Shown: positions 19,381-53,300, counted from the first letter of the stretch. The stretch is DNA of 64,000 bases from Deltaproteobacteria bacterium (GCA_016208165.1 JACQYL010000053.1:21447-85446), one strand, 5' to 3'. A program made the numbers and translations. The notes: generated from the sequence alone by a model not told the origin.

Positions 19381-19950
19381 ATGATCTACAATCCTGACGG
19401 GCAATTCGATGCAGTGATCCGACTTACGATGATTGTGGCGATCCTGGTGGTTGGGTGCAGCAGCTACCAAGATCTCGTGTACGGCACCCGTGGCTATACC
19501 ACTAGGCTCCCTCGAGAAGCGCCTGTCTACGTGGCCGTTCCGAAGGACGCGCCGATTTCTTATTCTTCCGGTAAGACGGGAGACACCGGAGGTACGTTTC
19601 CGCAGTCCGGACAGTCCACGGCCGAAGTCATTGTGGGCGCCTTTGCGAAACGCGCATCCAGAGTCCAGTTGGCCCCGGAAACGCAGTCGCTGGCCGACGC
19701 ATTGAAACAAGCGAAGACGGATGGATTCAAGGTTCTGGTCTGGCCGACCCTGATCCATTGGACGGACCGGTCCGAGCACCGCCGGGATCAGATCGTCGTA
19801 AAATTGGTGTTGTACGACACCGGTACGAGAAAGGCTCTCGACTCGGTCACGATCAGAGCCAAGAGTGTAAAATCCGCGCTAGCCTCTCCGAAGGAACTCC
19901 TTTCCGACCCGGTGAGCGATTACGTTGATTCGCTCTATTTCGGCACATAG
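19381..19950 (+). CDS. Putative lipoprotein
   Basis: Hydrophobic N-terminus ending in the lipobox LVVGC (IVAILVVGCSS). Confidence 0.45.
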   Translation: MIYNPDGQFDAVIRLTMIVAILVVGCSSYQDLVYGTRGYTTRLPREAPVYVAVPKDAPISYSSGKTGDTGGTFPQSGQSTAEVIVGAFAKRASRVQLAPETQSLADALKQAKTDGFKVLVWPTLIHWTDRSEHRRDQIVVKLVLYDTGTRKALDSVTIRAKSVKSALASPKELLSDPVSDYVDSLYFGT

Positions 19951-20004: not shown

Positions 20005-20043
20005 CAAAAAAACCGGGAGAACCCGATTCAACAGGTTTTCCCG
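20005..20043 (-). terminator. Rho-independent terminator at the 3' end of the minus-strand cytochrome operon
   Basis: Plus strand reads AAAAAAA-CCGGGAGAAC-(12 nt loop)-GTTTTCCCGG. On the minus strand this is a 10-bp GC-rich stem followed by a U7 run, 54 nt downstream of the stop of the 11-heme cytochrome gene. Confidence 0.45.
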
Positions 20044-20096: not shown

Positions 20097-22394
20097 TCAA
20101 CGAAAGCTGTGACAACTGCAGCAATCAAGCCTTTCAGTATGTCCCGCCGGTTGCGCAGTGATCGGACCCGGGCCGCACAGATCTACCTGCGACCCGTCGC
20201 CCCCGCTCAGGTCCGGAGCGAAGGGCACGAACTCGAAGTTGGCGCCCTGATCCGCCATGTGGATTTTTGGATCCACACCGTCGTGACAGGAAGAGCACGC
20301 GGAAGCGGTTGGAGTGATGTTAATATCGTCGTTGGGACTCGCCGCGTCGTTCCCTACTTCGATGGTCGTAGGCAACACGTTGTCGCCGATGGCCGGCAAT
20401 TCAAAGCTTCCATCGATATGACAGGCCTCGCAATCGTTTAACGGCCGGGGATAGCGAACTTCGCTGTAGTCGTTGGGGCTACCGCCAAATCCGTACACCA
20501 CGATGCCTTCGGTCCTGAAACCGTCGGCGGAGGAGGCGCCGGCATGGATGGCATGGATCAAGTATTTGAAATCAATGGTTTCCTGTGTCTTACCGTCGGC
20601 CGTTGTCGCTGAGCCACCCGGGCGCCGGCCGATATCCGTGGCATCCGGGTTATGGCAGATTACGCACAGCTGAGTTTCGTCGTTCCGGTTTGCTCCGTGC
20701 AAGCTCAACAAACCGTGGCACTGATCGCAGTTGGCGATGTCCACAACCTCCCGACGCGCCTGTGGCGTAGCGTCCGTGACGGCAAAAAAATTCACCACGC
20801 CTTTGACCGGCACCCGTACATCGAACACGCCGGGTTCGGATTCCACCGCAGGATGCCCCTCGATGGCCACAACCCCCGATCCGGTCACAGCCGCAGGAAT
20901 GGCCACTCCGGATGTCACTGTAAACGTGCCGTCGCCGTTGTCCACCGCGCTTGTAATCGGATTGATCGAGATGGGCTGAGCCGGGGTGCTGGTGCTGCCC
21001 GTGTTCGTATAATCTTCGGAATTCCAGCCGATGAGGATCGCCAATCGGCTGGCGCCTCCGGGAGCATTGAATTCCGGATCGACGAGAATATCGTAGGGCG
21101 CGTCACCGTTGGTGGGATCCGTAACCGAGAATGTGATCACCGGAAACTGTCCGGGCCCCGTGTTCTGGACGTCCAATATGTTGTATTCGAACCTGGCTGC
21201 GGCGGCCTGTTCCGGAATCACGTGAGTATCCGTGATGCCCGCCGCGCCTCCGGACGCCGGATGACAGTTGACGCAGCTGCGGTTGTCGGGTTGGGCGCCC
21301 CCGGCATGGTTTTCACCGGTCACCAAGTTGACGTCGTCGTGACACGACGTGCATGCGGCAATGGTGGGAACGTTCATCCAGTTGTCACCATCCGGCGTAT
21401 CGGAGTCCGAGCCGTCGTGACATTTGGTGCAGTTGCGCCGATCCTGAGGAAAGACCACGTTGGAGTAGTCGTTTACCGAATCCCCAAAACCATATATCAC
21501 ATATTCACCGCCGGCCTGCACACTGGGCAGGTCCTCACCCGAGTGGATCTTGTGGATCATTACCTTGAAATCAACGGTGTTGCCGCTGTTGGCGTCCGTA
21601 CTGCCCGGATTGTGGCAGGTTACGCAATACTTGACAGCGATCCTATCCCCGCCGTGAAATCCCAGCTTCCGGTGGCACTCGTCGCAGTTCGCGTTCCTCA
21701 CGATCGAGCGAGTGGTTATCGGCGTGCTGCCATCGGGCACGAATTCGAATATGGCGTTATCCGTGTTCTCCGTAGTCTGCATGGCCACGCGATGCGTCAG
21801 GGCGGGATTATACGCGACGGCTACGGGAGACGTTACGTTTTGGATATCGAACGAGAAGGTATAGCTGTAGCTGCCGTCCTGATTGTCCACAAACACGCCC
21901 CCCTGCGTACTCGTCCTTTCCGACGAAGCTTGAACCTGGTCCGTGGTCCCCGGCCCTACATCAGGGGTTTCAATCACATTGATGTAACTCTGCCAGAAAC
22001 TCGCATTGCCGTTTGCAGCGGGATTCAGCTGCGCCAGAGTGAAGCGGATGTTCGAAGGGGCCACAAACGCGAGCGGCTGGCCCGCGTTGAACAGCCTGAA
22101 ATTTATGGTCGTGGCGCCGCCAACGATCGTCACTGCGTCTATGACCCCGGTTATAGTCGTCTCCGGAGTGCTGTGCTGCGCGGCCACGTCTACGATCCGG
22201 CCCGGATCGTGGCACAGCATGCATTCTTCGTTGAATGTCTGCTCCACGAGAGGGGGCGCCTGATCTCCGGTACCGCCGCTCTCGCTGCCGCACCCTGCCA
22301 GAAGTAGAACGTAACCGATCGCAAGGCACAAGACCAAGCTGTTAAACAATCCTTTTCTCATGACACCATCTCCTTCCACTCTGAGGTCCGTCAC
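20097..22394 (-). CDS. Large multiheme c-type cytochrome lipoprotein (11 CxxCH motifs), candidate outer-surface terminal reductase
   Basis: CxxCH motifs: CMLCH, CDECH, CVTCH, CTKCH, CTSCH, CVNCH, CDQCH, CVICH, CEACH, CSSCH, CCSCH. Signal peptide with lipobox LLAGC (alternative start at M12 near 22361). Thr/Gly/Asn-rich, beta-rich composition between hemes. Confidence 0.9.
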   Translation of the reverse strand: MTDLRVEGDGVMRKGLFNSLVLCLAIGYVLLLAGCGSESGGTGDQAPPLVEQTFNEECMLCHDPGRIVDVAAQHSTPETTITGVIDAVTIVGGATTINFRLFNAGQPLAFVAPSNIRFTLAQLNPAANGNASFWQSYINVIETPDVGPGTTDQVQASSERTSTQGGVFVDNQDGSYSYTFSFDIQNVTSPVAVAYNPALTHRVAMQTTENTDNAIFEFVPDGSTPITTRSIVRNANCDECHRKLGFHGGDRIAVKYCVTCHNPGSTDANSGNTVDFKVMIHKIHSGEDLPSVQAGGEYVIYGFGDSVNDYSNVVFPQDRRNCTKCHDGSDSDTPDGDNWMNVPTIAACTSCHDDVNLVTGENHAGGAQPDNRSCVNCHPASGGAAGITDTHVIPEQAAAARFEYNILDVQNTGPGQFPVITFSVTDPTNGDAPYDILVDPEFNAPGGASRLAILIGWNSEDYTNTGSTSTPAQPISINPITSAVDNGDGTFTVTSGVAIPAAVTGSGVVAIEGHPAVESEPGVFDVRVPVKGVVNFFAVTDATPQARREVVDIANCDQCHGLLSLHGANRNDETQLCVICHNPDATDIGRRPGGSATTADGKTQETIDFKYLIHAIHAGASSADGFRTEGIVVYGFGGSPNDYSEVRYPRPLNDCEACHIDGSFELPAIGDNVLPTTIEVGNDAASPNDDINITPTASACSSCHDGVDPKIHMADQGANFEFVPFAPDLSGGDGSQVDLCGPGPITAQPAGHTERLDCCSCHSFR

Positions 22395-22403: not shown

Positions 22404-23000
22404 TTATCCCTTGTCGTGAAGGTAGAACTCCTCGTACAAGACGATCGCCTTCTTTACTGCGAATGTCGCCGCACGGGATGATATGGTCGCCCCGGCGATC
22501 CCGGTAATGTCTTTACCGACCGTTAGAACGGAACCGCTGGTCTTACCTTGGTACTGATCCATGAAACTACGTCTCGCGATGGGACGTCCCCTTTTTTCCT
22601 GATAGCTCATCACGAGCACTCTCTGGACGGCGCCCCTCAGATCCATTGCGATCATGAACTCGACAGGGCCCCATTTTCCGGGTTGGTCATCAATAACGGC
22701 CACCCCTATTTTTTTTCCGTCCTTTTCAGCAAAGTAGAAATCGATCTTCTTGCTTGCAACCACGGCTGCGGACTCTGAACCTTCCTGGAGAAATTCGAGG
22801 CTTCCTCCCAACCGTTCCGTCACGCGTTGCTCAACCTCGCCTTTCAACCTTTCCGTCTGTTTGATGATCTTGGTGCCCGCACCAAAAACCTCGAGCAGGG
22901 CCTCTTTGAGCGTCAACAAGGTGAACGCGTGGCCGAGAACAACAGAAGCGGCGAAAACGGCCACTGCGCTTACTACAACAAGAGCTTTCTGCTTTGTCAT
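22404..23000 (-). CDS. Membrane-anchored FMN-binding domain protein (FMN_bind; RnfG/NqrC/PplA-like flavinylation substrate)
   Basis: N-terminal TM helix. C-terminal region DITGIAGATISSRAATFAVKKA contains the conserved D..(S/T)GAT(I/L)(S/T) motif whose Thr is the FMN attachment site in NqrC/RnfG. Start taken at MTKQK (23000), which is preceded by an AGGAGA RBS. Confidence 0.8.
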   Translation of the reverse strand: MTKQKALVVVSAVAVFAASVVLGHAFTLLTLKEALLEVFGAGTKIIKQTERLKGEVEQRVTERLGGSLEFLQEGSESAAVVASKKIDFYFAEKDGKKIGVAVIDDQPGKWGPVEFMIAMDLRGAVQRVLVMSYQEKRGRPIARRSFMDQYQGKTSGSVLTVGKDITGIAGATISSRAATFAVKKAIVLYEEFYLHDKG

Positions 23001-23013
23001 GTGGTGTCTCCTG

Positions 23014-24036
23014 CTATTCGATAGTGGAAATCGCCTGGAGGCGATCTTTGAGACCGGAAGAGTACAAGACTTCACCGGATTCGGTGACCATGATCACCTC
23101 CATGCCGGGAATGCTCTCAACGATCTCGAGACCTTTCTCGGGCCCCAAAACGAACAACGCCGTATTCCAAGCGTCTGCGAGAGCCGGGTCCCCGTACAGG
23201 ATCGTAGTGCCCGTGAGTCCTGAAGCGGGATACCCTGTCTTCGGGTTAAAGATGTGGTGATAGCGCTTACCCTGGTCCATGAAGAATCGCTCGTAATCCC
23301 CCGATCCCATGATCGAGAGGTCCTCCGCCTCTATGAATCCGAGAAGGCCGTCGCCCCGTGGGTCTTTGATTCCCACCTTCCAGGACCGGAGTCCCTTTTT
23401 CCCCATGGCGTATACGTCTCCCCCGGCATCGATCAAGGCTGAGGTCACTCCTTCAGCCCGCAACACTTTTATCGCCTCACCCACCGCGTATCCTTTTGCA
23501 ATGCCGCCTAAGTCGATCCGAATATCGGGCCTAGTCTTTTCCACCTTCGAGTTCCGGACGACCAGATGTTTGTAGCCGATCTTTTCGATGCATCGTTCGA
23601 TGCTTTCGTGATCGGGGACGGAGGGATGGTCTCCATAAAACCCCCATAGCGATATGAGCGGACAGATCGTGATATCAAAGGCGCCGTCCGAATCGCGACT
23701 CACGCCTAAGGCTAATTTCACGAGATCCACGATCTCGCTGTCTGAAATGGGGGCGCCCTCATTGTTGAATGCATACAGGGGGCTTTTAGGGTTCAGGAAA
23801 TCAAACTTCTCATCGACTTCTTCCATCCGCTGCAAGGCCGCGTTCACGGCCTTGGATGTCAATTTCTCGGGGCCGACGGCATAGACGGTTACGTAGGTAT
23901 CCATCATCACGCGCGTCTGCTTTTCCAGATGGAATCGATAGGAGTTGTAGGTTCTCACGCTAAAAAAGACAGCGAACAGCACTCCGACAACTATGAATAT
24001 GACTTTCGCCGTCTTAGACAGGCTATTTTGCTTCAA
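23014..24036 (-). CDS. apbE: FAD:protein FMN transferase (ApbE family), membrane-anchored
   Basis: N-terminal TM helix, then the typical ApbE layout (MDTYVTVYA...GVSRDSDGAFDITI.PLI..WGF...IDLGGIAKGYAV...GD.Y..G). 340 aa. Confidence 0.85.
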   Translation of the reverse strand: MKQNSLSKTAKVIFIVVGVLFAVFFSVRTYNSYRFHLEKQTRVMMDTYVTVYAVGPEKLTSKAVNAALQRMEEVDEKFDFLNPKSPLYAFNNEGAPISDSEIVDLVKLALGVSRDSDGAFDITICPLISLWGFYGDHPSVPDHESIERCIEKIGYKHLVVRNSKVEKTRPDIRIDLGGIAKGYAVGEAIKVLRAEGVTSALIDAGGDVYAMGKKGLRSWKVGIKDPRGDGLLGFIEAEDLSIMGSGDYERFFMDQGKRYHHIFNPKTGYPASGLTGTTILYGDPALADAWNTALFVLGPEKGLEIVESIPGMEVIMVTESGEVLYSSGLKDRLQAISTIE

Positions 24037-24153: not shown

Positions 24154-25425
24154 TTAAAAGGTCGTCCTCCATCCCAACGTCCATCGGATGTACTTGAGCG
24201 TTTCCGAACCATCAGACCGATCGGCATCCACGAGTTCGATCTGTGGTATGATCGTCGAGTTACTGGTAATCCAGTAGTTCAAAGCCATGGACAATGTCTT
24301 ATAATTATCCGTAACGGCGCTCGTTGAAGGGAAGAAGAGATCTACATCGCTATACTTGGCCAACACCCGCCATTCGGGATTGAAAGTGTACATGGCCCGG
24401 ACGTAATATCCTTCGTTCACCGCATCCGCCGTTCCCCCGCCGATCAGCGGGGAATCTTCCTGTTCTCTTCGCAGGTATTCGCCGAGAAGGCTGATGCCCT
24501 TGTATCGCAAGTCCGCACCACCGAGCCATTGCCACGAGTTGTTATCATCGTCGTTATCCCACCTGCCCCATCCCAAGGAGCCCAGAATCCGTATGCTTAC
24601 GTCCATCAAGGAGAATTCGGGCGCTACATGCAGCAACAGATTCTTGGTGCCGTTGTTGTCCACGTAACGGCTCTCTTCATTGTCCCCGTTCAGATATGGA
24701 TAGAAATACACGGGCAATGAGAAATTCTCGAAATCGAAGTTGCGGTACAGCTCCACCCCCAGCGATCGCCAGGACTCCAAAAAGAGCAAGCCATTGTTCC
24801 CGTGATACTGCTCATGCCACCAAGTCTGTCTGGCGTATTCCTCGCTGAACATCGGGTAGAAGGCGCCCACCCGCGCTTCCAGTTCCCAGGGAAGCCTGAC
24901 CGTCATGTATGCCTCGTCAAGGTCCACATCCACGGAAGCCGAGCCCGCTCGGGTGATGTCTCCGCCGAGCCCGGGGGTGGCGGCGGCCAACACTTCGATC
25001 TTGGGAGCAACATCGAGACTCAGCCACTCGTTGAGCACTTTGCTGAAATAGAGATATACGTCACTGATGCCGGCGGAAAGATTGTTGTTCTGGCTCACAT
25101 CGTTGCGCTCACCGTCCGTCCGATCCAGCATGAAGAACTTGAAATGTCCCCCAATGTTGACCCCCTTCCGCACCTCCTCCATGATTTTTGAAGGCATCTG
25201 CGACAGTTCGTCAACACTGTCCTCGAGCTCGGGAATGGCTGCAATCTCTTCCTTCTGGGATTTCTGCTCCTCCTCGAGTTGTTCCACCCGCTCTTTCATC
25301 GTATCCATTGCCTTTTGCATCTGCTGGATCTGCTCTTTAAGATCGGCAATTTCGTCCGACATCGACCGAGCAGGCGCCAACAAAACACAAACAATGACAA
25401 CCACCAATGCAATTCGCAGCTTCAT
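24154..25425 (-). CDS. Putative outer-membrane beta-barrel (porin-like) protein with an N-terminal coiled-coil segment
   Basis: Cleavable signal peptide, about 60-aa heptad-rich Glu/Gln/Lys segment, then alternating aromatic/hydrophilic beta-strand pattern rich in Tyr/Trp/Asn/Gly. C-terminal ...LGWRTTF ends in Phe as in OMP beta-signals. Confidence 0.5.
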   Translation of the reverse strand: MKLRIALVVVIVCVLLAPARSMSDEIADLKEQIQQMQKAMDTMKERVEQLEEEQKSQKEEIAAIPELEDSVDELSQMPSKIMEEVRKGVNIGGHFKFFMLDRTDGERNDVSQNNNLSAGISDVYLYFSKVLNEWLSLDVAPKIEVLAAATPGLGGDITRAGSASVDVDLDEAYMTVRLPWELEARVGAFYPMFSEEYARQTWWHEQYHGNNGLLFLESWRSLGVELYRNFDFENFSLPVYFYPYLNGDNEESRYVDNNGTKNLLLHVAPEFSLMDVSIRILGSLGWGRWDNDDDNNSWQWLGGADLRYKGISLLGEYLRREQEDSPLIGGGTADAVNEGYYVRAMYTFNPEWRVLAKYSDVDLFFPSTSAVTDNYKTLSMALNYWITSNSTIIPQIELVDADRSDGSETLKYIRWTLGWRTTF

Positions 25426-25443: not shown

Positions 25444-26292
25444 TTACCTAATAATGGTCCGGATCATTCTATTGACGGACAGGCCGAGTGACTTCCGGAA
25501 CCTCCGGGCGCCACCCACCCTCTCTACGTTTCCCTCCTTTTTATCCGTTCTCGTTTCACTCGGGGGTTCCATCCCTGGCCGGAGAAGCATAGCTACCAAG
25601 TGATTCTCGTGCTGTTGAGCAACCCTCCGATGAGTAGAAAGATCCCGCACAGTTTCCAGATCGGCGCTGCCTTCGAACATCGTCCGATCCATGGGGAAGT
25701 TCTGCCTGCGAAGATGAGCAACGGTGAAATGGATGATAAACACGTGCCCCATGGCCAGCATGCCCTCGATACGATGCACCCAAAGGGCTATGTTCAAGCC
25801 CCATCCCGGTATGATGCGCGTCGAAATCAGAGGGAAAGCCAGGATCAAGCCCGTTGTGCCCATGACCATCATGCCCCAGAATACCGCTCCCAGGTAATCC
25901 ACCTTTTCCCAATATCCCCAGCGGTCAAGACGTGGATGAGATCCTTTGCCGAGAAACCAGGCCACATGCTGGAAAAAATCCTTCACATCATGAGGTTGGG
26001 GAAACATGGAATCCGGGCCCATGAGGGATGACGGAAAAGTACGCCAGCGAATCCGGAAGGCCAGGTACACGAGATGGAGCAGAAAGGCCAGAATCATGAA
26101 AAGTCCCACGTACTTGTGAACCACGAGGGCCGACTCGTAGCCGCCGAACACGCGGGCAAGCCCTTTTCCCCAAGCCGTTTGGATATACATGCGCGCAAGT
26201 CCGGACGCGCCCTGCGTCAAGAACGTGATGATCAGCACCACATGTGAAATGCGTTCTACGGTGTTAAACCGTTTAAGTCTGATCTTCTCCAT
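25444..26292 (-). CDS. Membrane b-type cytochrome (Ni/Fe-hydrogenase b-type cytochrome subunit / cytochrome b561 family; candidate quinol oxidase)
   Basis: RFNTVERISHVVLIITF at the N-terminus is characteristic of the PF01292 family. Four hydrophobic helices with conserved His. Start taken at MEKIRLKRF. Overlaps the upstream gene stop by about 20 nt. Confidence 0.7.
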   Translation of the reverse strand: MEKIRLKRFNTVERISHVVLIITFLTQGASGLARMYIQTAWGKGLARVFGGYESALVVHKYVGLFMILAFLLHLVYLAFRIRWRTFPSSLMGPDSMFPQPHDVKDFFQHVAWFLGKGSHPRLDRWGYWEKVDYLGAVFWGMMVMGTTGLILAFPLISTRIIPGWGLNIALWVHRIEGMLAMGHVFIIHFTVAHLRRQNFPMDRTMFEGSADLETVRDLSTHRRVAQQHENHLVAMLLRPGMEPPSETRTDKKEGNVERVGGARRFRKSLGLSVNRMIRTIIR

Positions 26293-26995
26293 CCGTTTGA
26301 TGACCCTCGTCGCTAGGTTTTCTCTTGAGCAACAACTCCCTGAGACTCCAAAGGAACGTATGAGGCAGAAACACCACAAAGATGCTCACCGACATCCCTA
26401 TCATGATCCAGAACGCATAAAACAGGATCGGGAAATCTTTTCTTGTGCTGAGAGACGCCGGATTTGGCGAATGAACGACGTAGCTGGCAAACGAGGCGTT
26501 GGCTCCTTCGTGACACTTGGAGCAGACGTAGGCATGCCTTCGTATGGGATTCATGGGTGAATAATAGTATTCGCCGCCGGAGATCGGCTCTCCACCATGG
26601 CACTGGCGACACGTCAGATTGGCCCGAACGGTGTGCAGGTCTCGGGTTTCTCTTGGATGGCAATCTTCGCAGGTTTGATACTCGTAGAACCTCAGCCCCA
26701 CATGGGAATCTTCGAGGCGGCTCCGAATTCCTATCCTGGCCGCAGCCGGAGTGTACGGCAGCAGTCCTCGCCTCAAACCCGGAATCGCAATCAACGGGGA
26801 TTCGCTGAAGGGTCTAGCCTCATATTCCTCGTAGTACCCGGTACTCGCTTCATAGTTCTTGTAGCGACGGATGGACGACGCCACTTCCTCCTGAGCATGG
26901 CACAAAGCAGGCCCCAGGAGCAGCGCCGCCGCCAGGCCTAAAAGCAGGGCTATCGATACTCTCCCTGCGGCTCGGTTTCTCATAAGGAATCGCAT
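26273..26995 (-). CDS. Triheme c-type cytochrome with N-terminal signal/anchor and C-terminal transmembrane helix
   Basis: CEDCH, CRQCH and CSKCH motifs. Hydrophobic C-terminus FPILFYAFWIMIGMSVSIFVVFL followed by a charged tail. Confidence 0.8.
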   Translation of the reverse strand: MRFLMRNRAAGRVSIALLLGLAAALLLGPALCHAQEEVASSIRRYKNYEASTGYYEEYEARPFSESPLIAIPGLRRGLLPYTPAAARIGIRSRLEDSHVGLRFYEYQTCEDCHPRETRDLHTVRANLTCRQCHGGEPISGGEYYYSPMNPIRRHAYVCSKCHEGANASFASYVVHSPNPASLSTRKDFPILFYAFWIMIGMSVSIFVVFLPHTFLWSLRELLLKRKPSDEGHQTDGEDQT

Positions 26996-27193: not shown

Positions 27194-28525
27194 TTACTTG
27201 AGTTCAAACGTTTCCGCGCCTTCCTCCTTAAGCTGTATTTCCGGATCTTTTCCTTCCCCTTCCGGGGAGCCGGCCGATTCCGATTCGCCTCCGCCAAAGC
27301 CTCCAAAAGCATCTCGCTGCAACTTCTTCAAGTCGGCGCCCTTATGCTTGTGGCACGTCTCGCAGGAATTAGGAATGTTGGGATTCTTGATCGTGTCGAT
27401 GGGCAACAGGGTGACGAACACATGGCTGTGTAGATCCCCGGATTCCGCGTTTTTCGCGATCCTCGGCATATGACATCCTACGCAATTTGCAAAAGTGTGG
27501 ATGGCGTGCGCCTTAACCCTGTTGACCAACTGATGGCACTGGAAGCACTGCTGCGAACCGGCGGCGGACGTTTGGGACTTGGTTGGAGGCAGACCGATCT
27601 GGTGTACAAAGTGGCAGGAGGTACAGGTAACGCCTTCCACGTAATGAGCCGATTTCAGCCAATCGTTGTATTGCTGATGATGCCCCTTGGAGAACTCATT
27701 CATGTAGAAGTTTCCCGTGTCGCCCTCAGCATACGAAGTGGCGTTGTAATAGGCGGCAAGGGCTTCTCCCGGCTGGTAATCGACGGGCCAATGAACGCCT
27801 TCGGCTACCGTGGACATGCCGCGCTCGTGACACGAACCACAGATCTGAACCCTCGCTCCCGTGGACAATTTGGCCGGATTTACAATTGTTTTACGCTTTT
27901 CGAACACGGCTGTTTTCGGTAAGGCGACATGCCAGGAACCTTTCCCATGACACGCCTCGCACCCTATGCTCAACTCGCTGAACCTGTTGTTTTTCAGATC
28001 CACACCGGTGGCGTGGCAACCACCGCAATACTGGAGCCAGGGTTTTTGATCCCAGTCACCTTCGCGATAAGTCACCCATCGATGAGTGTCCATATTGTAT
28101 TGAATGGGAGCGATGTAAAGAGCGCCGTTTTTTTCAACGATGAAACGCTGCTGCCATTGCCCCCCAATGGCGTATTTGATCTCGTCAAGTTTGGGGATAT
28201 AGATCTGATCCGTCGATGGCTTGGCTGCATCTTCCGATTGGGTGAAGCTCTCCCGAATCTTGGCCTCACTATAAGGGACCATAATGGCGCTGGCGTCCTT
28301 TTGCACATCCAGGGTGCTGCGGCTGTGAGAGGTCATCTTCCAGGAATCGTAATGCTGCAGGTGGCACATCTTGCATCGATCCGATCCGGCGTACGTTTTT
28401 GGAGCTGCTGTGATTTCTTCAATATCTACAGGCGCTTCCGGACTACATGCGGCTAAAACAAGGAGTGTCAGACAGACTGCGATAAGCTTCGAACGGCTTC
28501 CCATGACCATGTTCCCCTCCTCCAT
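27194..28525 (-). CDS. Octaheme c-type cytochrome lipoprotein (periplasmic)
   Basis: Eight CxxCH motifs (CKMCH, CGGCH, CEACH, CGSCH, CTSCH, CFQCH, CVGCH, CETCH). Signal peptide with lipobox LAAC. Confidence 0.9.
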   Translation of the reverse strand: MEEGNMVMGSRSKLIAVCLTLLVLAACSPEAPVDIEEITAAPKTYAGSDRCKMCHLQHYDSWKMTSHSRSTLDVQKDASAIMVPYSEAKIRESFTQSEDAAKPSTDQIYIPKLDEIKYAIGGQWQQRFIVEKNGALYIAPIQYNMDTHRWVTYREGDWDQKPWLQYCGGCHATGVDLKNNRFSELSIGCEACHGKGSWHVALPKTAVFEKRKTIVNPAKLSTGARVQICGSCHERGMSTVAEGVHWPVDYQPGEALAAYYNATSYAEGDTGNFYMNEFSKGHHQQYNDWLKSAHYVEGVTCTSCHFVHQIGLPPTKSQTSAAGSQQCFQCHQLVNRVKAHAIHTFANCVGCHMPRIAKNAESGDLHSHVFVTLLPIDTIKNPNIPNSCETCHKHKGADLKKLQRDAFGGFGGGESESAGSPEGEGKDPEIQLKEEGAETFELK

Positions 28526-28607: not shown

Positions 28608-29879
28608 TCACATGAAAGGAGCTTTTTCTTTCACTGAAGATCCGAGGTTCTCATCGATCGTTTCGACACGCGCAAGGTCCCACAGACGGCTCGTACCGTC
28701 CGCCATGACATAGAGAGTCGCCACCCAATTACTGATCCACTCAACGAGATGACTAATTCTTTTCTTCTTTTCCAGCCTTGCTCCACGAATGCTGGTCCGC
28801 GCCGTTTCCCACAGGTACGGTATGGCTTCCCAGGAAAGCGTGAGTTTCGCCGCCACACTCTTTGACGAAATCCCGAAAAATCGCAGGAACGACAGTAAAC
28901 CGGTCAGTCCGTTGGCCAAGTCCGCCAGCGACGTGGTCATGGTTAACAGGAAACTCAGAAGCATCAGATAGAAAAGGCGAAATGCAAACTGAAACCCGTA
29001 GGTAACCCCTTCAATGGTCATCGTCAAATACGGTATCTCGAATATCGGACGGCCTTCCCCCTGAAGCAGAGCCGGGATCAGAAAAGATGTCAGAAGCAGC
29101 CATCGATACCTTCTTGATCTCCCCAGTAGCTGGGACACCGGAATTCTCGATAGCAACATCGAAGCCAGGAGAAGTCCGGAAAGGCTGAGCATTAACCAGA
29201 GGTTGGCGCTGATCAGAAGAATGAGCGACAAAATCCCACATCCGGCAATCTTTGCCTTGCTTGACAACTGATGGATACAAGAGTCCCGATGCACATAATG
29301 TCGAGATTCCGGCCTGGGCATCCCCTCCGATACCGTCAGAGCGGCTTCGGTCATCGTCCCGATGTGTTCCAACCGTATGCACACGGAGCGTGCAATCGCT
29401 CCGGTAACCCAGCCCATGAGCACGCCTCCGATGCAAAGCCAAGGCAGGAACACAAAAACACCTTCGTGTTTGATTAGTATGAGGTAGGCGAGGACCAGTT
29501 GGGTCAGATTATGGCAAAGGGCGCCCAAAATACTGATCCCGATCAAGCTGAAACGATAGTGACTGCTCGAACCGGAGACCCAGAAAAGGAAGCCCATGGC
29601 GCAGGTGCTGAGAAAGGCCCCGGAAATGCTCAGTACGAAAGGAGGGGACAGGAACGTGCCCATGAGGAAGGAACTGAGAATGGCCCGCAACAAAGCGACT
29701 TCCAGGGCTGCTTTAAAACCCAGGGTCACCAGGGCTACCAAAGTAATCATGTTGGCCAGCCCCAGCCTGAGACCGGGTATGGGGTGGGGCACAATCGATT
29801 CCGCTATTTGAAGCACACAAGAGAGGGAAACGAAAAGCGCTATTTTTTGCATTCGATCGGCTGACAAGGATGCTTCCAT
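28608..29879 (-). CDS. Fusion membrane protein: N-terminal Gx-transporter domain (formerly 'heptaprenyl diphosphate synthase component I', Hpt_synth_I) plus C-terminal ECF-transporter T-component (EcfT/CbiQ)-like domain
   Basis: Residues about 10-175 match the Gx transporter family (IAESIVPHPIPGLRLGLANMITLVALV...ISILGALCHNLTQL). Residues about 200-420 match EcfT/CbiQ (LTMTIEGVTYGFQFAFRLFYLMLLSFLLTMTTSLADLANGLTGLL..L.FFGIS...A.KLTLSW..IPYL.E.A). Confidence 0.65.
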   Translation of the reverse strand: MEASLSADRMQKIALFVSLSCVLQIAESIVPHPIPGLRLGLANMITLVALVTLGFKAALEVALLRAILSSFLMGTFLSPPFVLSISGAFLSTCAMGFLFWVSGSSSHYRFSLIGISILGALCHNLTQLVLAYLILIKHEGVFVFLPWLCIGGVLMGWVTGAIARSVCIRLEHIGTMTEAALTVSEGMPRPESRHYVHRDSCIHQLSSKAKIAGCGILSLILLISANLWLMLSLSGLLLASMLLSRIPVSQLLGRSRRYRWLLLTSFLIPALLQGEGRPIFEIPYLTMTIEGVTYGFQFAFRLFYLMLLSFLLTMTTSLADLANGLTGLLSFLRFFGISSKSVAAKLTLSWEAIPYLWETARTSIRGARLEKKKRISHLVEWISNWVATLYVMADGTSRLWDLARVETIDENLGSSVKEKAPFM

Positions 29880-30620: not shown

Positions 30621-31262
30621 AAAACAGACGCCGGATGACAGTTGGAAATCCGTTTCCCGGTCAAATGATTCTCAGCAAATCGATCTCTCTGTCAAAGACG
30701 CAGCTGTAGAAGAGAAACCGCCCTTAAGAGCACATCATAACACTGGGAACTGCTTAAGATTGAACTTCCTGGGTTTTTTACACGAATCGGCGTTCATACT
30801 CATGTATGGCCGCATCGAGCTACGATCCCGACGCTGACTTCATGTGCAAGGGCTTCTTTCGATCACGGTCTTTTTAGAGGCGGGACTCGATCACGCACCA
30901 TGCGTTCGTGATTCGATCTGTTTTGCTCAGGCTGCGATACCTCTATAAAAAAGAGGGCTCTATGCCCTTACGAAGCAATTATACGATAACAGGAGAGCCG
31001 CAGGCCTGTCAAGAAATCGCCACGAAATTGCAGCGAACTCCGCACCGGGAATTGGCCTGTAATCGCGCACGGCCATCATGACTTCGGGATCACGCGGACG
31101 GTATAGCCCGAACAAGAACGATTTCTCAATTGCCTTTTCACGAAAAGGCGACTACTTTTTTGATGGTAATCCTGTTGAACAACATCGGCGAACTGTCACG
31201 ACCGAAATCATCCTGCCGCGGGAATACGATCCGTATACCCCCGAGTAATTAGGAGGACCACC

Positions 31263-40756: not shown

Positions 40757-42760
40757 TTAGTAAACAAAAATCGACGCCCAGTCCGCGAATCGGGTCTGAA
40801 AAACGTCGCCTCGATTCACCACCGCCAACTCGAGCTTCTGAACGCCTCGCACATTCACCAGGATTTTGAGGGGCGGTTCTCCTGCCTTGATCCACGTTGT
40901 CTGGGCGAGTTGGCGCCTGTCTCCGAACACCGAAAAAACGACGATCTTGGTTTCCGACTCCGCAGCGTCGTCCAGCCCCACCACGGCCTCGAGGCCCTTG
41001 TAGCGACCGTCGAGCCGATACACCACGGAACTGCTGGAACGCATTCGAATGCCGTTGGCATATTGGACTCCTCTCAGGTTCAAATACCCGCCGCAAATCT
41101 CGGGAGCAAAGAAGTGCTCTATGATGCCTCTTACGGGTACAACGGGATGAAGGGCGGTAAGGTACCGCGGAGAACCGACACCCACCACACTGTTCGCCCA
41201 CCGGATCGTAGAGGAGCCGGTCTCCTCATACGTGGGAGCACGAATGGACGAAGGGTTCCCGCAATAAAGGACCGCCGCGCAGGCGAGACCTTTTCGATAC
41301 ATCCGTACCATGTAGGCTCGCGACCATCCAGAGTCGGCGCCGGGATCGAAGGGCCTCCCCGGCTCCACGGCGTCCGTTACGACCACATACCCGGCGCCTG
41401 TCGGACCCCCAACTCCCGGCGAGAGGAGATAGAGGTTTTTCGTTGAACGATTTCCGAATAGGGACAGGTACGAGAAAGCGCCCGCGTCCGCCCATACGGG
41501 AATGTTCGGATTTTCGGAGATCAAAGAGGCCACTTCAGGAATGAATCGCGTTCGGGCGGTGTAGCGCTCTTGGTTTTCGGAAAGGGCCGGCCAGTCGTTC
41601 ATAAACAGCAACACGCAACACACCAGGAAAACGGTTTTGAATGGGTATCTGACTTGGCCGATGGGTTTGTTCAACACATCGAAGGCTCCGGCAGCCGTCA
41701 AAGCGAGCGGCGCGGACAGGGCAGCCAAGTCCGCCGGATTACGCAAAAACGAGAACGCCCCCTGCCCCAAGGCTCCCATGGATAAGGACAGTCCCACGGG
41801 AAGCAGGAGCCAGTACATCACAAAACGATTTTTGGGCCTGCCCCAAGCCGCCAACATCAGACCTAAAACGATCGCCGCACACAGCGTCTTCGGCAAGCCA
41901 TCGTAGGAATAGGCGTCGGGTATCGCATCCCATGCAGGTCCCGACCATTCCGCGCCAAATAAAGCCGCGGAGATCACGTAGACGACGAGTGAGGCCGCAA
42001 ACCAGCTCGAGTAGAAATAGGCGGCTTCCTTCCAAGGCCGTTGACGGTTGGGACTCTCGTAGTACAGCAGCACGCATGAGAACGGAAACAACATCCATCC
42101 CCATGGCCCGCACCAGCAGGCCGCGCCGAAAAGGAGTCCCGAAAAAATCAGGCTTCCCTTTTTCTTGTTCCGATGTGTACGCTGTTTCAGCAGGATCCAC
42201 GTAGCCAGGGAAACAAGCGTTCCTGCTGCAAGGGCTCCGCTCACCCGCGTGGCCGAAAAGATATCCGGAGCCCATATCGCGCAAAAGAACGCGGAAAGAA
42301 CCCCTGCAAAACGATTCTCAAACAATCGACTACCCAGTAGGTACAGGAGTGCTATCTGGCCCAGGGATATCAGAACGGGCCATCTCCAGATTACGGATGA
42401 CGATGGTCCTAAAACGGCAAGAAACGCTCGAACGGGTAACAGGACCGACCAGGGAGCGGTCAAGGAAGGTTCGATTTGATGTTGGAAAAACGTTTGATAC
42501 AACAAGCGGGCGTCTTGTTCGCCGATGCCGGTAAAGAAGACGGCTCGGAGCAGCATGCCGAGGGCAAGAACCCCAAAAAATAAGGGGCAAGCGCGCCGCT
42601 CCGCCCACACGACCGCGCTCGGGAGGATGTTTCCCTGCTCCGGGGGCTCCTGGGATCTTAACTTTCCACCGGTATCCAATGTTTCCGCGGTAGACGTCTC
42701 AAGAAAAAAAAGGCGGCGCCCGAAAACAGTTCGGAGCACGCCGCCTGGATGACGAGTCAC
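40757..42760 (-). CDS. Multi-pass membrane GT-C-like glycosyltransferase with C-terminal NPCBM (NEW2) carbohydrate-binding-like domain
   Basis: At least 10 predicted TM helices in the N-terminal 400 aa. C-terminal 150 aa show the NPCBM pattern (VYRLDGRYKGLEAVVGLDD...VVFSVFGDRRQL...ILVNVRGVQKLELAVVNRGD...FADWASI). Confidence 0.5.
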   Translation of the reverse strand: MTRHPGGVLRTVFGRRLFFLETSTAETLDTGGKLRSQEPPEQGNILPSAVVWAERRACPLFFGVLALGMLLRAVFFTGIGEQDARLLYQTFFQHQIEPSLTAPWSVLLPVRAFLAVLGPSSSVIWRWPVLISLGQIALLYLLGSRLFENRFAGVLSAFFCAIWAPDIFSATRVSGALAAGTLVSLATWILLKQRTHRNKKKGSLIFSGLLFGAACWCGPWGWMLFPFSCVLLYYESPNRQRPWKEAAYFYSSWFAASLVVYVISAALFGAEWSGPAWDAIPDAYSYDGLPKTLCAAIVLGLMLAAWGRPKNRFVMYWLLLPVGLSLSMGALGQGAFSFLRNPADLAALSAPLALTAAGAFDVLNKPIGQVRYPFKTVFLVCCVLLFMNDWPALSENQERYTARTRFIPEVASLISENPNIPVWADAGAFSYLSLFGNRSTKNLYLLSPGVGGPTGAGYVVVTDAVEPGRPFDPGADSGWSRAYMVRMYRKGLACAAVLYCGNPSSIRAPTYEETGSSTIRWANSVVGVGSPRYLTALHPVVPVRGIIEHFFAPEICGGYLNLRGVQYANGIRMRSSSSVVYRLDGRYKGLEAVVGLDDAAESETKIVVFSVFGDRRQLAQTTWIKAGEPPLKILVNVRGVQKLELAVVNRGDVFQTRFADWASIFVY

Positions 42761-42763
42761 CGG

Positions 42764-44164
42764 TTAAAAACCACCATACCCCATATTCACGGTTGCGGAA
42801 CCCGAGGTTACGGTTACATAGTTGACCCGTGTCTTGGTATTGGAACCGGCCGTGTTGGAGACCTGAAGCTTTACCGTATATATTCCCACCGCGGTGTAAT
42901 TATGAACGGGATTCTGCAGTAGGCTCTGGACGAGATTCGGATCTCCGGCGTCTCCGAAATTCCACTGCCAGGAAGTGGGACTGCCCGTGGATTGGTCTTG
43001 AAAAGTCACGAATAAGGGCGAAGGTCCGGTCGTGACCGTCGTGGCAATAAAGTCGGCCGTCGGCATCACATCGGCGGCGCTGACGCTGATGTAGTTCACT
43101 CTGGTGGTCCCGTTGCTGCCAAACGCGTTGCTTGCTATGAGCGTTACCGTGTACACGCCCGGATTCGTAAAGTTATGGGATGGATTCTGGAGCGCACTCT
43201 GAACCACGCTCGGATCTCCCGCGTCTCCAAAGTTCCACATCCAGCTTGTGGGGCTGCCCAAGGACGTATCAATAAAACCGACGGCCAAAGGCGCCGGTCC
43301 GCTGGTGGGCATCCCTGAGAACTGAGCTAATGGGGGCGTACCCGTAGCTGCGACCGAGACATAGCCGTTCTGGGTCAGCAGGGTCGATCCGCTGATGTTG
43401 GACACAGACAGAGACACGTCATAGGTTCCGGGATTATTGTAGGTATGTTGCGGATTTTGAAGCGTACTGGCAGCCCCATCCCCAAAACTCCATCCGAAGG
43501 CATCTTTGAAGTTGTTGGCGAGGGGCGACAGCACCGTCGGCGCCATGGACGGCGTCACGCCGACGTTACCCGAGGATGCGTTGGAAAACACCGTCGTCAT
43601 CTGCTCGGTACCGTCTCCCAAGTCCGTGGCGGTAAAGGTATTTCCTGACATAGTTGTCAAGAAGGCTTTGAAATCGACAGCGTCGAACGTATACACAATC
43701 ACCGTGGAACCGACCGTATAATCCTGGACATACATGCTCAACACATTGCTGCCGTCTTTCCAGATGCCGGAACGATCCGTCAATTGCGCTTGAAACGTTT
43801 TCGTAATGTCGATGACGGTGTCCGTATTCGGCGTGACGGTCCTGTTCGTAATCGTTGCGGTACCGGCCGTGGGTGCTGCAAATGAGAGGTGTAGCCCGCG
43901 GTCTTGACTGGGATCCAGGGAAAGAGCCTCAAACGTATTTCCCGACATGGAGCCGAGAAATGCATAGAAGTTAATTGCATCCCGGGTATAGATGACCACC
44001 GTGGAATTACCCTGCAGATAGTGCTGGATATAGAAGTTATGAATCGGATTGCCGCTCGTATCCTTCCACAGCCCCTGATAGCCGGTAGGCTGTCCGAAAG
44101 ACACACCTGGGACGAGCATCATCGCCACAAGACACGAAGAGACCAGCCACTGTTTAATTTTCAT
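42764..44164 (-). CDS. Secreted PKD-domain repeat protein
   Basis: Signal peptide. Three tandem PKD-like repeats (W.FGDG......NP.H.Y...G.Y.V.L..SN..GS) and two N-terminal repeats of another about 90-aa unit. Stop is 3 nt from the next gene's start. Confidence 0.75.
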   Translation of the reverse strand: MKIKQWLVSSCLVAMMLVPGVSFGQPTGYQGLWKDTSGNPIHNFYIQHYLQGNSTVVIYTRDAINFYAFLGSMSGNTFEALSLDPSQDRGLHLSFAAPTAGTATITNRTVTPNTDTVIDITKTFQAQLTDRSGIWKDGSNVLSMYVQDYTVGSTVIVYTFDAVDFKAFLTTMSGNTFTATDLGDGTEQMTTVFSNASSGNVGVTPSMAPTVLSPLANNFKDAFGWSFGDGAASTLQNPQHTYNNPGTYDVSLSVSNISGSTLLTQNGYVSVAATGTPPLAQFSGMPTSGPAPLAVGFIDTSLGSPTSWMWNFGDAGDPSVVQSALQNPSHNFTNPGVYTVTLIASNAFGSNGTTRVNYISVSAADVMPTADFIATTVTTGPSPLFVTFQDQSTGSPTSWQWNFGDAGDPNLVQSLLQNPVHNYTAVGIYTVKLQVSNTAGSNTKTRVNYVTVTSGSATVNMGYGGF

Positions 44165-50217: not shown

Positions 50218-51318
50218 CTACCACACCCCGAGATTCCGGTTCAAAACAGGGATTCGGCAGATTCTTCTTCTCAACAAGGGCATGTGGTATCGGGTGAGGA
50301 CCCTTGGAAGGTCAAGCCATGACCGCGCTGCCATCCATTGCCAATCCACGTTCGGACTCGAACGCCATGTGGTGGAACACTCCGAACATGGCGAAGGCAG
50401 TCCCTCCGGTCCGGCCATCAGCCGACCACGCAATTCCCTCATGGCGGATCCATTCCACACGTCCATCAGGCCGTGTCGGGTCACGTCTCCACCCGGATAT
50501 TCGTTTCGATAATCCTGAAAACACGCCATGGCGCTGCCATCCCAGGTGATGGAAATGCCCGTGTAGGGTCTCAGACATGGAACGTACCGTTTCCCTCTTC
50601 GCGGGTCCGCCGCCGCTGAAGCTAGGCTTGGCAGTTTTTTCAGGCTCTCGGAATAGGACCCGGTCGAATGGATCGGGGCCGTGTAAATCCGGTCCACGGG
50701 CAGCCCCCTGAACAATTCAAGAAATCCCGGATCCGGATCTCGCCGGCTCGCGCGCGACTCGAACACCCGCACAATTTTGATGGAAACCATGGGTCCGGCC
50801 GAACCCCGTTTCTTCTTCATCCGAAGCAACCGAAGTATATTGGACAGCGTCTTTTCGTATTTGGCGCCACGGTGTATCCGCTCGTATTCGTCGGGAAATT
50901 CGCTGTCAAAACTGATCATCACGCTGTCCAGTCCGCTCTCCAGCAAGCCCCGAGATTTCCTTTCAGTCAACAACGTGGCGTTGGTATGCAAAAGCACCTG
51001 AGGAATCCCCGCCTCTTTGGCTTCCGTTATCATCCGGAACAGCTCCGGATGCAGCAAGGCTTCTCCCACGCCGTTTACCGTCAGGTGATGCACCTTTCCC
51101 CGGGCCTGACGGATCAAATGCGTGAATAACCGGCGCTCCATGTTTCCCGGCGGTCGACCCAATCCATAGTGGTGTGCGCATTTGATGCATCGGAGGTTGC
51201 ACCGGTTGGTGGTCTCCAGCCACATGGCGATCGGCGGGGTCGAGAGCTTTGTCCTGCCTGAACAGTACTGACGATACGCCGTGTTGTTCCTGTGTATGTA
51301 TCCAATCGTGTTTTTCAA
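50218..51318 (-). CDS. Radical SAM / SPASM-domain protein
   Basis: CNLRCIKC (CxxxCxxC) near the N-terminus. C-terminal Cys-rich auxiliary-cluster region (CLRPYTGISITWDGSAMAC...CSEC). Confidence 0.8.
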   Translation of the reverse strand: MKNTIGYIHRNNTAYRQYCSGRTKLSTPPIAMWLETTNRCNLRCIKCAHHYGLGRPPGNMERRLFTHLIRQARGKVHHLTVNGVGEALLHPELFRMITEAKEAGIPQVLLHTNATLLTERKSRGLLESGLDSVMISFDSEFPDEYERIHRGAKYEKTLSNILRLLRMKKKRGSAGPMVSIKIVRVFESRASRRDPDPGFLELFRGLPVDRIYTAPIHSTGSYSESLKKLPSLASAAADPRRGKRYVPCLRPYTGISITWDGSAMACFQDYRNEYPGGDVTRHGLMDVWNGSAMRELRGRLMAGPEGLPSPCSECSTTWRSSPNVDWQWMAARSWLDLPRVLTRYHMPLLRRRICRIPVLNRNLGVW

Positions 51319-51432
51319 GGATATCTTTTCGCTTTTTCGCCTTGCAGCCCGGACGCTTATGCCGGCATTCAGAGTCCCTACACATCCGCGGAAGCAGGAG
51401 GAAACCCCTAACCCAGTCGGGTGCGTGTCGCT

Positions 51433-52518: not shown

Positions 52519-53296
52519 ACATCAGGTACCGGTGATGGGCCCACAGCGATTTCAGCCGGAGGGGCAAGTTTGAATTTTCTACGAATCCGAGGCGCTCGAC
52601 CCACTTCTTCTGCGCGGGGTCTTTACCCAGCAGATAGTCGAGGCTGCTCCACCGCCATCGTCTCATTGCATTGGCATCCGACCTCGGGAACAGCCGGCTG
52701 ACGGCCAGCCCTGTGTCGGGCCAGGGAGGACAATCCATCACCCCTTCCCGCACCAGCCGGACGCCGCTTCGGTAAAGGTTCTTCCTCACCAGATCCGCGC
52801 TCCCCCACAAGGCCTGATGCCTCTTAAAAAAGGAACGGTTCCACCCGAATCGCGCCCAAAGGTACCCCGCCTGAGTCAAATTGGGCAACACCAACAGCAC
52901 CACTTTGCGCGAAACGCGTACAAGTTCCTTCAGCAGCCGGCCAGGATCGGGCCAATGCCACAGCCCGTTGAAATTAAACGCGAGATCGAAGCTTTTCGAG
53001 CGAAACGGCAGCGATTCCCCGGTTCGCACCAGAACCGGACGTCTACCGAGTGCGATCCAGGAACGGCGGGCCGCATCGAGGACTCCCCATTCCATGTCCG
53101 CCAGTACTACGGCTACGTCCTTTTGGGCGAGAGGAACCGTGTTGATTCCGGCAATTCCGGACATACCGCGCACCGGGGCCTCCAGTACCCTGGAAAGGCC
53201 GTAGCTCGCATGGATGGAATCCAACAGATCCCACAGACGATGGCGCTCATAAACAGTTCCAAGACCCTCGTCCTGATTCGCGTGAGTCGAATCCAT
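52505..53296 (-). CDS. Putative SAM-dependent methyltransferase-like protein
   Basis: Weak class-I MTase-like pattern (FDLAFNFNGLWHWPD). Low certainty. Confidence 0.35.
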   Translation of the reverse strand: MDSTHANQDEGLGTVYERHRLWDLLDSIHASYGLSRVLEAPVRGMSGIAGINTVPLAQKDVAVVLADMEWGVLDAARRSWIALGRRPVLVRTGESLPFRSKSFDLAFNFNGLWHWPDPGRLLKELVRVSRKVVLLVLPNLTQAGYLWARFGWNRSFFKRHQALWGSADLVRKNLYRSGVRLVREGVMDCPPWPDTGLAVSRLFPRSDANAMRRWRWSSLDYLLGKDPAQKKWVERLGFVENSNLPLRLKSLWAHHRYLMYETK

Positions 53297-53300
53297 TCAC

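Follow-up and report, generated by a model that had tools for sequence, protein, structure and literature searches.

The stretch of DNA analyzed here, 64,000 nucleotides (nt) of a Deltaproteobacteria metagenome-assembled genome (MAG) (GCA_016208165.1, JACQYL010000053.1:21447-85446; hereafter the window), encodes a predicted lipoprotein cytochrome with 11 CxxCH heme-binding motifs at the end of a nine-gene cluster, and the question that this locus raises is which electron-transfer system such a protein serves. A first-pass annotation made from the sequence alone had assigned it an OmcB/MtrC-like role, as the likely extracellular terminal reductase of a conduit. On balance, we slightly favor a more specific reading, in which Desulfobacterota possess a flavin-linked electron-transfer module other than Mtr and the protein, a rearranged MtrC-type cytochrome, is its outer component. 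At the level of the sequence, we hold with high confidence that the heme-10 segment, C-terminal in canonical members of the family, has been relocated to the N-terminus, and that the C-terminus carries a new heme module.

That the cytochrome belongs to the OmcA/MtrC family is practically certain. It scored 552.6 bits against TIGR03507 (cutoff 209.3), with a match spanning amino acids (aa) 90-763, and matched the Pfam entries MtrC-MtrF_II-IV (4e-57) and OmcA-like_N. Sequence matches to the crystal structures of MtrF, OmcA, MtrC, and UndA were also obtained, UndA being the weakest (E 1.3e-11). An AlphaFold2 (AF2) model was built from 97 homologs, with a predicted local distance difference test score (pLDDT) of 88 and a predicted template modeling score of 0.82. 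When this model was compared with the PDB using Foldseek, the only significant matches were OmcA, MtrC, UndA, and MtrF (E 2e-36 to 2e-23; template modeling scores of 0.53-0.69), at an identity to the solved structures of merely 18-25%. The four-domain fold of the family (barrel I, pentaheme II, barrel III, pentaheme IV) was recovered by Pfam, AF2, and Foldseek. The MtrC half of the likeness first proposed is thus supported by homology, while the OmcB half is not, as no match to Geobacter OmcB appeared in the Pfam/TIGR family searches and such relatedness was rejected.

The open reading frame (ORF) contains exactly 11 CxxCH motifs, as had been counted, at aa 58, 237, 257, 322, 348, 374, 556, 577, 655, 700, and 758; composition-matched shuffles gave a mean of 0.03 motifs and a maximum of 1. 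Several of the motifs are indeed very closely spaced (20, 26, 26, and 21 aa), and 11 conserved non-motif histidines accompany them, which fits 11 bis-His hemes. The reported lipobox (LLAG/C, Cys35) is present as well, and its cysteine is invariant across 97 aligned homologs. The overall composition (G 10.1%, T 8.2%, D 8.1%, N 6.3%) agrees with the earlier description of T-, G-, N-, and D-rich regions between the hemes. The low-complexity scaffold read into these regions was ruled out, however, as they are two folded Greek-key beta-barrels (domains I and III) modeled at pLDDT >90, and only two short Gly-rich linkers are truly low-complexity. In MtrC and OmcA of Shewanella, a CX8C disulfide in domain III gates flavin binding; unlike these proteins, the window protein has no cysteine between aa 377 and 556 and hence no such disulfide. 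The family pattern of ten CxxCH motifs, arranged 5+5 with heme 10 at the C-terminus, was not found. The layout here is 1+5+4+1, which is a rearrangement of the same parts and not a loss of parts.

Canonical relatives have no N-terminal motif and end in ETCxxCHGPGRxADVxxVH, 33-37 residues past heme 9. In the clade of the window protein, this heme-10 signature is absent after heme 9 and is present right behind the lipobox (aa 55-74, NEECMLCHDPGRIVDVAAQH). When searched with a profile of the canonical heme-10 segment, the N-terminal segment was the best match in 76/76 full-length clade members (8-40 bits); all other heme sites of the clade reached at most 10.5 bits, and the last, C-terminal motif had a median of -6.8. 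Profiles were also made for each canonical heme. The N-terminal segments reached a median of 33 bits with that of heme 10, compared with 13 with the heme-5 profile and roughly 8 at most with the others, and the heme-10 profile ranked top in 75 of the 76 members. For the window protein, the corresponding values were 30.7 bits (heme 10), 21.0 (heme 5), and at most 10.5 (others). The possibility that the N-terminal segment is a duplicate of the heme-5 segment was rejected, since the heme-10 profile won in 75/76 cases. It should be noted that the canonical, MtrAB-linked relatives (P0082-P0120) have a collagen-like (GPP/GPA)n linker between the lipobox and domain I, where the heme-10 segment stands in the window clade.

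The two halves of the clade alignment, the N-terminal segment with domain I and hemes 1-4 on one side and the heme-5 segment with domain III and hemes 6-9 on the other, were compared using hhalign. They aligned end to end over 290 columns (probability 99.9%, E 4.5e-37), and the alignment opens precisely where the N-terminal segment is paired with the heme-5 segment. Because the halves align in this way, the protein is best described, from its sequence, as two tandem copies of a heme segment-barrel-tetraheme unit followed by the C-terminal module. Domain III follows directly upon the heme-5 segment in canonical members; in the AF2 model, the first strand of domain I begins 7 residues past the distal His of the N-terminal segment, which itself lies about 23 residues after the lipidated Cys. 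Since the two halves represent an internal duplication, the N-terminal segment could, by internal symmetry, fill the canonical heme-10 site. Heme 10 and heme 11 would both sit at the membrane-tethered end of the protein.

The module at the other terminus, of 25-30 residues on a Gly-rich linker, has the consensus LCgPGpxsxQPaGHtxrxDCCsCH, with its CxxCH seven residues from the C-terminal end; the window protein scored 52.6 bits against its profile. In P0068/P0079 and in loci L007, L010, and L068, the module comes after a heme 10 at its canonical C-terminal place, so that heme 10 and the module must be separate sites. A single event giving rise to both the permutation and the module was likewise rejected, as the module occurs without the permutation (L007, L010, L068) and the permutation without the module (P0246, P0265, P0280). 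A variant of the module, ending in QPPGH...C-x5-CH (e.g., CTAATACH, CLPPNACH) instead of CCSCH, was seen in P0078, P0094, P0096, and P0251; its C-x5-CH spacing is atypical for a c-type heme, if a heme is attached at all.

With which partners would such a protein work? No MtrA- or MtrB-like ORF was found within the 64-kb window, which holds three multiheme ORFs in all. The eight genes upstream of the cytochrome gene are given in Table 1; the two nearest, for the FMN_bind protein and ApbE, were overlooked in the first-pass annotation, as was the heme rearrangement. The combination used to recognize ApbE-dependent flavinylation, ApbE with an FMN_bind substrate bearing a [S/T]GA[S/T]-like motif and an export signal (PMC8238504), is present in the cluster, not in the cytochrome itself, and the motif is conserved there as [SA]GATISS (FMN, flavin mononucleotide). 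A partner barrel, whose absence would have made a surface role unlikely according to the first-pass annotation, is encoded there as well. This 423-aa porin is OprP/DcaP-like, with an internal helical loop and no heme motif. It is not a sheath of the MtrB/PioB type (a large barrel of ~650-710 aa, PF11854), for which a 16-strand barrel is too small. Weak NCBIfam matches in the cluster were to Ext-type and GSU2203-type cytochromes.

Table 1 Features of the cytochrome, its gene, and the surrounding cluster (coordinates are counted from the first nucleotide of the window; a slash marks the predicted processing site)
Feature	Coordinates	Strand	Remarks
Maximal ORF of the OmcA/MtrC-family cytochrome	20097..22394	-	765 codons + stop, GTG start
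Probable coding sequence of the cytochrome	20097-22361	-	754 aa, ATG = codon 12 (window 22361), AAGGAG upstream
Signal peptide and lipobox (MRKGLFNSLVLCLAIGYVLLLAG/C)	22290..22361	-	Lipidation predicted at Cys35
N-terminal heme segment, aa 52-74, EQTFNEECMLCHDPGRIVDVAAQH	22173..22241	-	Homologous to canonical C-terminal heme-10 segment
Domain I, beta-barrel, ~aa 80-222 (Pfam OmcA-like_N)	21729..22157	-	Pfam, model
Domain II, pentaheme, aa 229-391, motifs 237/257/322/348/374	21222..21710	-	Fifth motif is MtrC heme 5
Domain III, beta-barrel, ~aa 400-540, no cysteines	20775..21197	-	Sequence, model
Domain IV, four motifs (556, 577, 655, 700 = hemes 6-9), without canonical heme-10 segment	20220..20753	-	
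New C-terminal heme module, aa 739-765, LCGPGPITAQPAGHTERLDCCSCHSFR	20100..20180	-	CxxCH 7 aa from end, conserved His, two extra Cys
Terminator-like hairpin, then T-run	20010..20029	-	3' of the cytochrome stop codon
551-codon antisense ORF	20652..22307	+	Shadow ORF, not a gene
FMN_bind (RnfG/NqrC-type) protein, 198 aa	22404..23000	-	Predicted cleavable signal peptide ..GHA/FTLLT, flavinylation motif IAGATISS, 40 bits
ApbE-family FAD:protein FMN transferase (FAD, flavin adenine dinucleotide), N-terminal membrane anchor	23014..24036	-	273 bits
Outer-membrane porin-like protein, 423 aa: signal peptide, N-terminal coiled coil, 16-strand barrel	24154..25425	-	
Membrane b-type cytochrome (Ni_hydr_CYTB / FdnI-like)	25444..26379	-	True start probably internal
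Triheme c-type cytochrome, signal peptide and C-terminal transmembrane helix	26273..26995	-	
Octaheme c-type lipoprotein, lipobox LAA/C	27194..28525	-	Best solved relative OcwA (6I5B), E 1.2e-20 over ~265 residues
Polytopic membrane fusion: Gx transporter (Hpre_diP_synt_I, ECF-S-like) + CbiQ (ECF-T-like) (ECF, energy-coupling factor)	28608..29879	-	
NusG_II-domain protein, one membrane helix	29901..30308	-	First cluster gene
Promoter-like sites 31012-30983 and 30695-30668	30668..31012	-	Upstream of first cluster gene; consensus matches only

The same nine genes were found around relatives at 70%, 57%, and 56% identity, around a member lacking the heme-5 motif, and around the un-permuted form that bears the module; the gene of a canonical relative belongs to an mtrC-mtrA-mtrB cluster that also has a Cytochrom_NNT gene. 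We surveyed the context of 80 further metagenomic loci in addition to the earlier ones, using a profile for each partner. All family members in an MtrAB context (69/69) lacked the module; 64 of them had the canonical C-terminal heme 10, and in 5 this fell below threshold. Complete proteins in an ApbE/FMN_bind/porin context all carried the module (10/10), with the heme-10 segment at the N-terminus in 7 and at the C-terminus in 3, and an eleventh protein of this context was truncated at a contig end. Linkage to MtrA/MtrB was seen in 0/11 clade loci versus 69 canonical loci, and the N-terminal heme-10 segment and MtrAB never occurred together among the loci examined. The hosts are Deltaproteobacteria, Desulfobacterales-type MAGs, Desulfosalsimonadaceae, Desulfosarcina, and the Olavius symbiont Delta 1. 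Among the matches listed in the contig scan was also a distant family locus at 30% identity (L006). Of note, the canonical mtrCAB loci L036, L039, and L041 have two or three more MtrC-family paralogs in tandem upstream, similar to the Shewanella omcA/undA arrangement.

An exhaustive family search returned 857 representatives at E 1e-30 or better, and the architecture of the top 150 was scored. Most of these (105) were canonical; about 21 had the N-terminal segment, 19 of which lacked the module (plain permuted decahemes), and 6 carried the module. Of three such permuted proteins examined for their context, two were located in ApbE/FMN_bind clusters and one beside NrfD and 4Fe-4S genes, and none had MtrAB alongside. 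Since permuted proteins also occur elsewhere, the permutation is broader than the nine-gene cluster. In the third of these contexts (L092:6946-15259), the permuted decaheme P0246 is encoded between small c-type cytochromes and the 4Fe-4S/NrfD gene pair. At two further loci (L090:12546-14534 and L091:5466-7769), a second MtrC-family paralog (662 and 767 aa, respectively) lies directly downstream of the permuted cytochrome gene; duplication followed by fusion, as a route to circular permutation, would be expected to start from tandem paralogs of this kind.

A further change concerns the fifth motif of domain II, the heme-5 motif, which is absent in 26/76 clade members. In MtrCAB, heme 5 of MtrC is the contact heme, lying 8 Å from heme 10 of MtrA (PMC12203936). 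The MtrA-facing entry point therefore seems to be dispensable in the clade, and this loss is consistent with a changed electron-entry partner.

We consider it probable that the cluster encodes a functional, flavin-linked module that is not of the Mtr type. In the mechanism that we propose, the nine genes would form a self-contained module that connects the quinone pool with the outside of the cell in place of MtrAB. The cytochrome b and the membrane-anchored triheme protein would exchange electrons with the quinone pool, and the OcwA-like octaheme lipoprotein and the covalently flavinylated FMN-binding protein would act as periplasmic carriers. The adjacent ApbE would attach FMN to the latter protein, for which the Gx/CbiQ ECF-like fusion probably provides FAD, by analogy with described systems (PMC8238504, PMC11334425). 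At the outer membrane, the 16-strand porin would be the partner of the MtrC-type lipoprotein, the outermost redox protein, which would exchange electrons with extracellular or poorly soluble partners. An outward flow is favored, with the cytochrome acting as a terminal reductase at the cell surface; judged from homology, this surface-exposed role has about an even chance of being correct. Electrons have been proposed to leave the Shewanella proteins through heme 10, and electrode reduction is lost when a ligand of this heme is mutated in OmcA (PMC12203936, PMC9861303). Because heme 10 is here tethered close to the lipid anchor and a new heme lies at the same end on a flexible linker, we infer that the polarity or docking of the protein changed together with its partners. 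One arrangement, which we regard as speculative and improbable, is a plug-in gate: heme 10 and the flexible heme-11 module would be placed at the membrane-proximal tip, and the disulfide-stapled module would enter the lumen of the 16-strand porin and there connect the surface cytochrome with the octaheme or the flavinylated protein in the periplasm. If true, such a conduit would do the job of MtrAB by means of a general-porin fold and a single intramembrane heme.

Strong family membership would also suit a simpler explanation, in which the protein is the ordinary MtrC of an MtrCAB conduit whose MtrA and MtrB are encoded elsewhere, the N-terminal CxxCH being an incidental extra heme. Paralogs such as OmcA and UndA do work without an adjacent MtrAB of their own. 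This explanation is nonetheless barely credible: the window lacks an MtrA/MtrB-like ORF, the clade was beside MtrAB in none of its 11 loci whereas 69 canonical relatives are, the heme-10 segment is N-terminal and missing from the C-terminus, the MtrA-contacting heme-5 motif can be lost, and the eight upstream genes are strictly conserved. It is also very unlikely that the N- and C-terminal CxxCH motifs are non-functional remnants and the protein effectively a nonaheme or decaheme. The low confidence at which the C-terminal module was modeled and the CX5CH found at this position in some relatives could be taken in that sense. Both motifs, however, are conserved together with their partner His and flanks across 69-76 diverged sequences (50-60% identity), and without the N-terminal segment, domain IV would be short of its fifth heme and of one distal His.

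Other explanations leave the rearrangement in place and differ in where the electrons go. The cytochrome may be a periplasmic reductase, anchored on the periplasmic face of the membrane with the flavinylated protein and the octaheme, so that no electrons cross the outer membrane; its substrates would be small anions entering through the OprP/DcaP-like porin, e.g., chelated Fe(III), sulfonated quinones/humic analogs, or an oxyanion. A 16-strand porin with an internal helical loop offers no obvious electron path across the outer membrane, which keeps this periplasmic role in play and weakens the case for a surface terminal reductase. We nevertheless find a periplasmic reductase unlikely, given that all characterized family members are cell-surface proteins (PDB titles 'outer membrane' or 'extracellular'), that a wire of ~730 residues and 11 hemes exceeds what a soluble periplasmic substrate needs, and that Gly/Ser rather than Asp follows the lipobox, which, applying the E. 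coli rule by inference, argues against retention in the inner membrane. In addition, the cytochrome cluster of one relative (L004:12372-22325) is directly followed by a gene resembling that of type II secretion system protein C, as well as by a complete type II secretion operon that runs on the other strand and spans GspF to GspM-like genes, including pseudopilins. Type II secretion is the export route of MtrC and OmcA in Shewanella. A possible alternative, which we hold only tentatively, is inward flow, with electrons from a syntrophic partner, reduced minerals, a cathode, or shuttles passing through the octaheme, triheme, and cytochrome b to menaquinone and supporting sulfate respiration in Desulfobacterota. 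The hosts, Desulfobacterales-type MAGs that include the Olavius symbiont Delta 1 and Desulfosarcina relatives, suit such a direction, electrons can in principle run either way through multiheme chains and quinone-linked cytochrome b/c modules, and the related conduits MtoAB and PioAB run inward. Porin-cytochrome complexes that take up electrons have been described as well (PMC12203936). Against this stand the facts that sequence sets no direction and that no sulfate-reduction or syntrophy genes were linked to the cluster in the examined loci. Inward flow is compatible with the proposed architecture, and the two are not exclusive.

Several points weigh against our preferred reading of a rearranged MtrC-type cytochrome in a flavin-linked module. 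The loci of the context survey are not phylogenetically independent, and as L002=L003 and L004=L005 are duplicates, the number of independent loci is lower. Plain permuted decahemes that lack the module occur in other contexts, so that the permutation is not specific to the cluster. The placement of the N-terminal segment in three dimensions rests on the duplication argument, its pLDDT being just 71-83 and that of the C-terminal module <50, and profiles of such short segments (25 aa) have limited power. The occupancy of all 11 heme sites is a prediction, and heme attachment, localization, flavinylation, and activity are likewise predicted from the sequence. Predictions place ApbE and the FMN-binding protein on the periplasmic side, which makes a direct pairing with a surface cytochrome topologically awkward, and type II secretion genes were not found among the scanned ORFs of the window.

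The boundaries of the cytochrome gene call for one correction. The 765-aa protein first described corresponds to an existing ORF with a GTG start, but its product is likely 754 aa long and starts at the ATG of codon 12, because AAGGAG precedes this codon and the 754-aa NCBI product MBI4774805.1, from a Deltaproteobacteria MAG, matches it with 100% identity. NCBI labels this product 'OmcA/MtrC family decaheme c-type cytochrome'. The position of the gene as the last of its operon was confirmed by the eight same-strand genes upstream (intergenic gaps of -107 to 198 nt), the hairpin that follows its stop codon, and the convergent orientation of the next gene. The overlapping antisense ORF against which the first-pass annotation had warned does exist, and it is spurious. 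Its GC content per codon position (0.71/0.48/0.58) mirrors that of the sense gene (0.58/0.48/0.70), it departs from the pattern of every confident gene of the window, in which the third position has the highest GC, and an NCBIfam search with it gave no match; a real gene was thus ruled out.

A few details of the neighboring genes were also recorded. The flavinylation motif of the FMN_bind protein is IAGATISS in the window and ISGATISS in five relatives, the target Thr being kept and the preceding Ser replaced by Ala; the listed ORF of this gene, 22404-23075 (-), begins 25 codons upstream of the likely Met. As listed, the cytochrome b ORF shares 107 nt with the 3' end of the triheme gene. As its relatives are 273-283 aa long, the start is probably an internal Met (MEKIRLKRF...), which would leave a short overlap. 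The gene convergent to the cytochrome gene, at 19381-19950 (+), encodes a DUF4823 lipoprotein, and the closest relative with a complete genome shows the same arrangement (L001:12421-13014), which more distant loci lack. Two large secreted-looking proteins are encoded ~20 kb from the cluster, at 40757-44164 (-), one of 466 aa with three PKD domains and one of 667 aa with an NPCBM/NEW2 domain. They are followed at 50218-54482 by radical-SAM/SPASM and sugar-epimerase genes; all of these are seemingly unrelated to the cytochrome.

Compared with known systems, the window protein resembles MtrC, OmcA, and MtrF of Shewanella (4LM8, 6QYC, 4LMH, 3PMQ; MtrCAB, 6R2Q) in its full-length homology, its four-domain plan, and its lipoprotein signal, and all ten canonical heme segments are recognizable in its sequence. 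It differs from them by the N-terminal location of the heme-10 segment and the extra C-terminal heme module. Its cluster, unlike that of MtrCAB, has no MtrA or MtrB and encodes ApbE, FMN_bind, a 16-strand porin, an OcwA-like octaheme, and a cytochrome b instead, and heme 5 is often lost in the clade. Eleven hemes are also found in UndA, where the additional heme has been inserted into the second of the two pentaheme domains. This OmcA/MtrC-family protein (3UCP) is a significant match by both sequence and structure, but domain IV of the window protein has four motifs, and its total of 11 results from the terminal module together with the relocated heme 10. The porin-cytochrome conduits of Geobacter (OmaB/OmbB/OmcB, Ext) are similar in that they, too, combine genes for an octaheme in the periplasm, a barrel in the outer membrane, and a multiheme lipoprotein on the outside; in contrast, the outer cytochrome of the window is of the MtrC family and not of the OmcB type, its barrel is a 16-strand general porin, and flavinylation genes are present. 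The fused porin-cytochrome Cyc2, which combines a small (~16-strand) barrel with a single heme, is a minimal outer-membrane redox device and, to our knowledge, the only precedent for a barrel of such size in electron transfer. The window barrel, unlike Cyc2, has no heme motif and would need a heme from a separate protein; the comparison is one of barrel size.

Flavin-based extracellular electron transfer in Listeria and other Gram-positive bacteria (FmnB/ApbE, PplA, ECF-type FAD export) shares with the cluster an ApbE, a secreted FMN_bind substrate, an ECF-like S/T protein, and a membrane electron-transfer module, but the context in the window is diderm, with a porin and three multiheme cytochromes and without Ndh2 or EetAB. 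Two surveys of ApbE-associated clusters make no mention of MtrC-family cytochromes or porins there (PMC8238504, PMC11334425). The best solved relative of the octaheme encoded in the cluster, a neighbor of the cytochrome studied here, is OcwA of Thermincola potens (6I5B), which differs from it in having nine hemes and in being a Gram-positive cell-surface protein, whereas the cluster protein has eight hemes and a lipoprotein signal. The main phylogeny of Mtr systems surveyed mtrCAB clusters only (PMC8805035), and our literature search, which did not cover subscription-only papers, found no paper that reports the rearranged termini, the heme module at the C-terminus, or the association with ApbE/FMN_bind/porin genes. 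The gene itself is already annotated in public databases; these three features appear to be undescribed.

MtrC and OmcA are the textbook terminal parts of bacterial extracellular electron transfer, a mechanism understood only for MtrCAB. The branch of the family described here is widespread in Desulfobacterota, where public data contain dozens of clusters at 90% identity, and presents three changes: MtrAB is swapped for a flavinylation-linked porin set, the proposed egress heme lies at the lipid-anchored end, and a new terminal heme is present. For annotation, this means that the label 'decaheme' is wrong for the clade, and that an MtrC-family gene alone is no proof of an Mtr conduit in metagenomic surveys. 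The protein also offers a clean case, in nature, of a multiheme protein that evolved in a manner resembling circular permutation, and is as such of use to the engineering of heme wires. If the module works at the cell surface, it would connect sulfate-reducer-type bacteria to minerals, electrodes, or syntrophic partners in a way not yet described, and it would link covalent flavoproteins to multiheme conduits in diderms.

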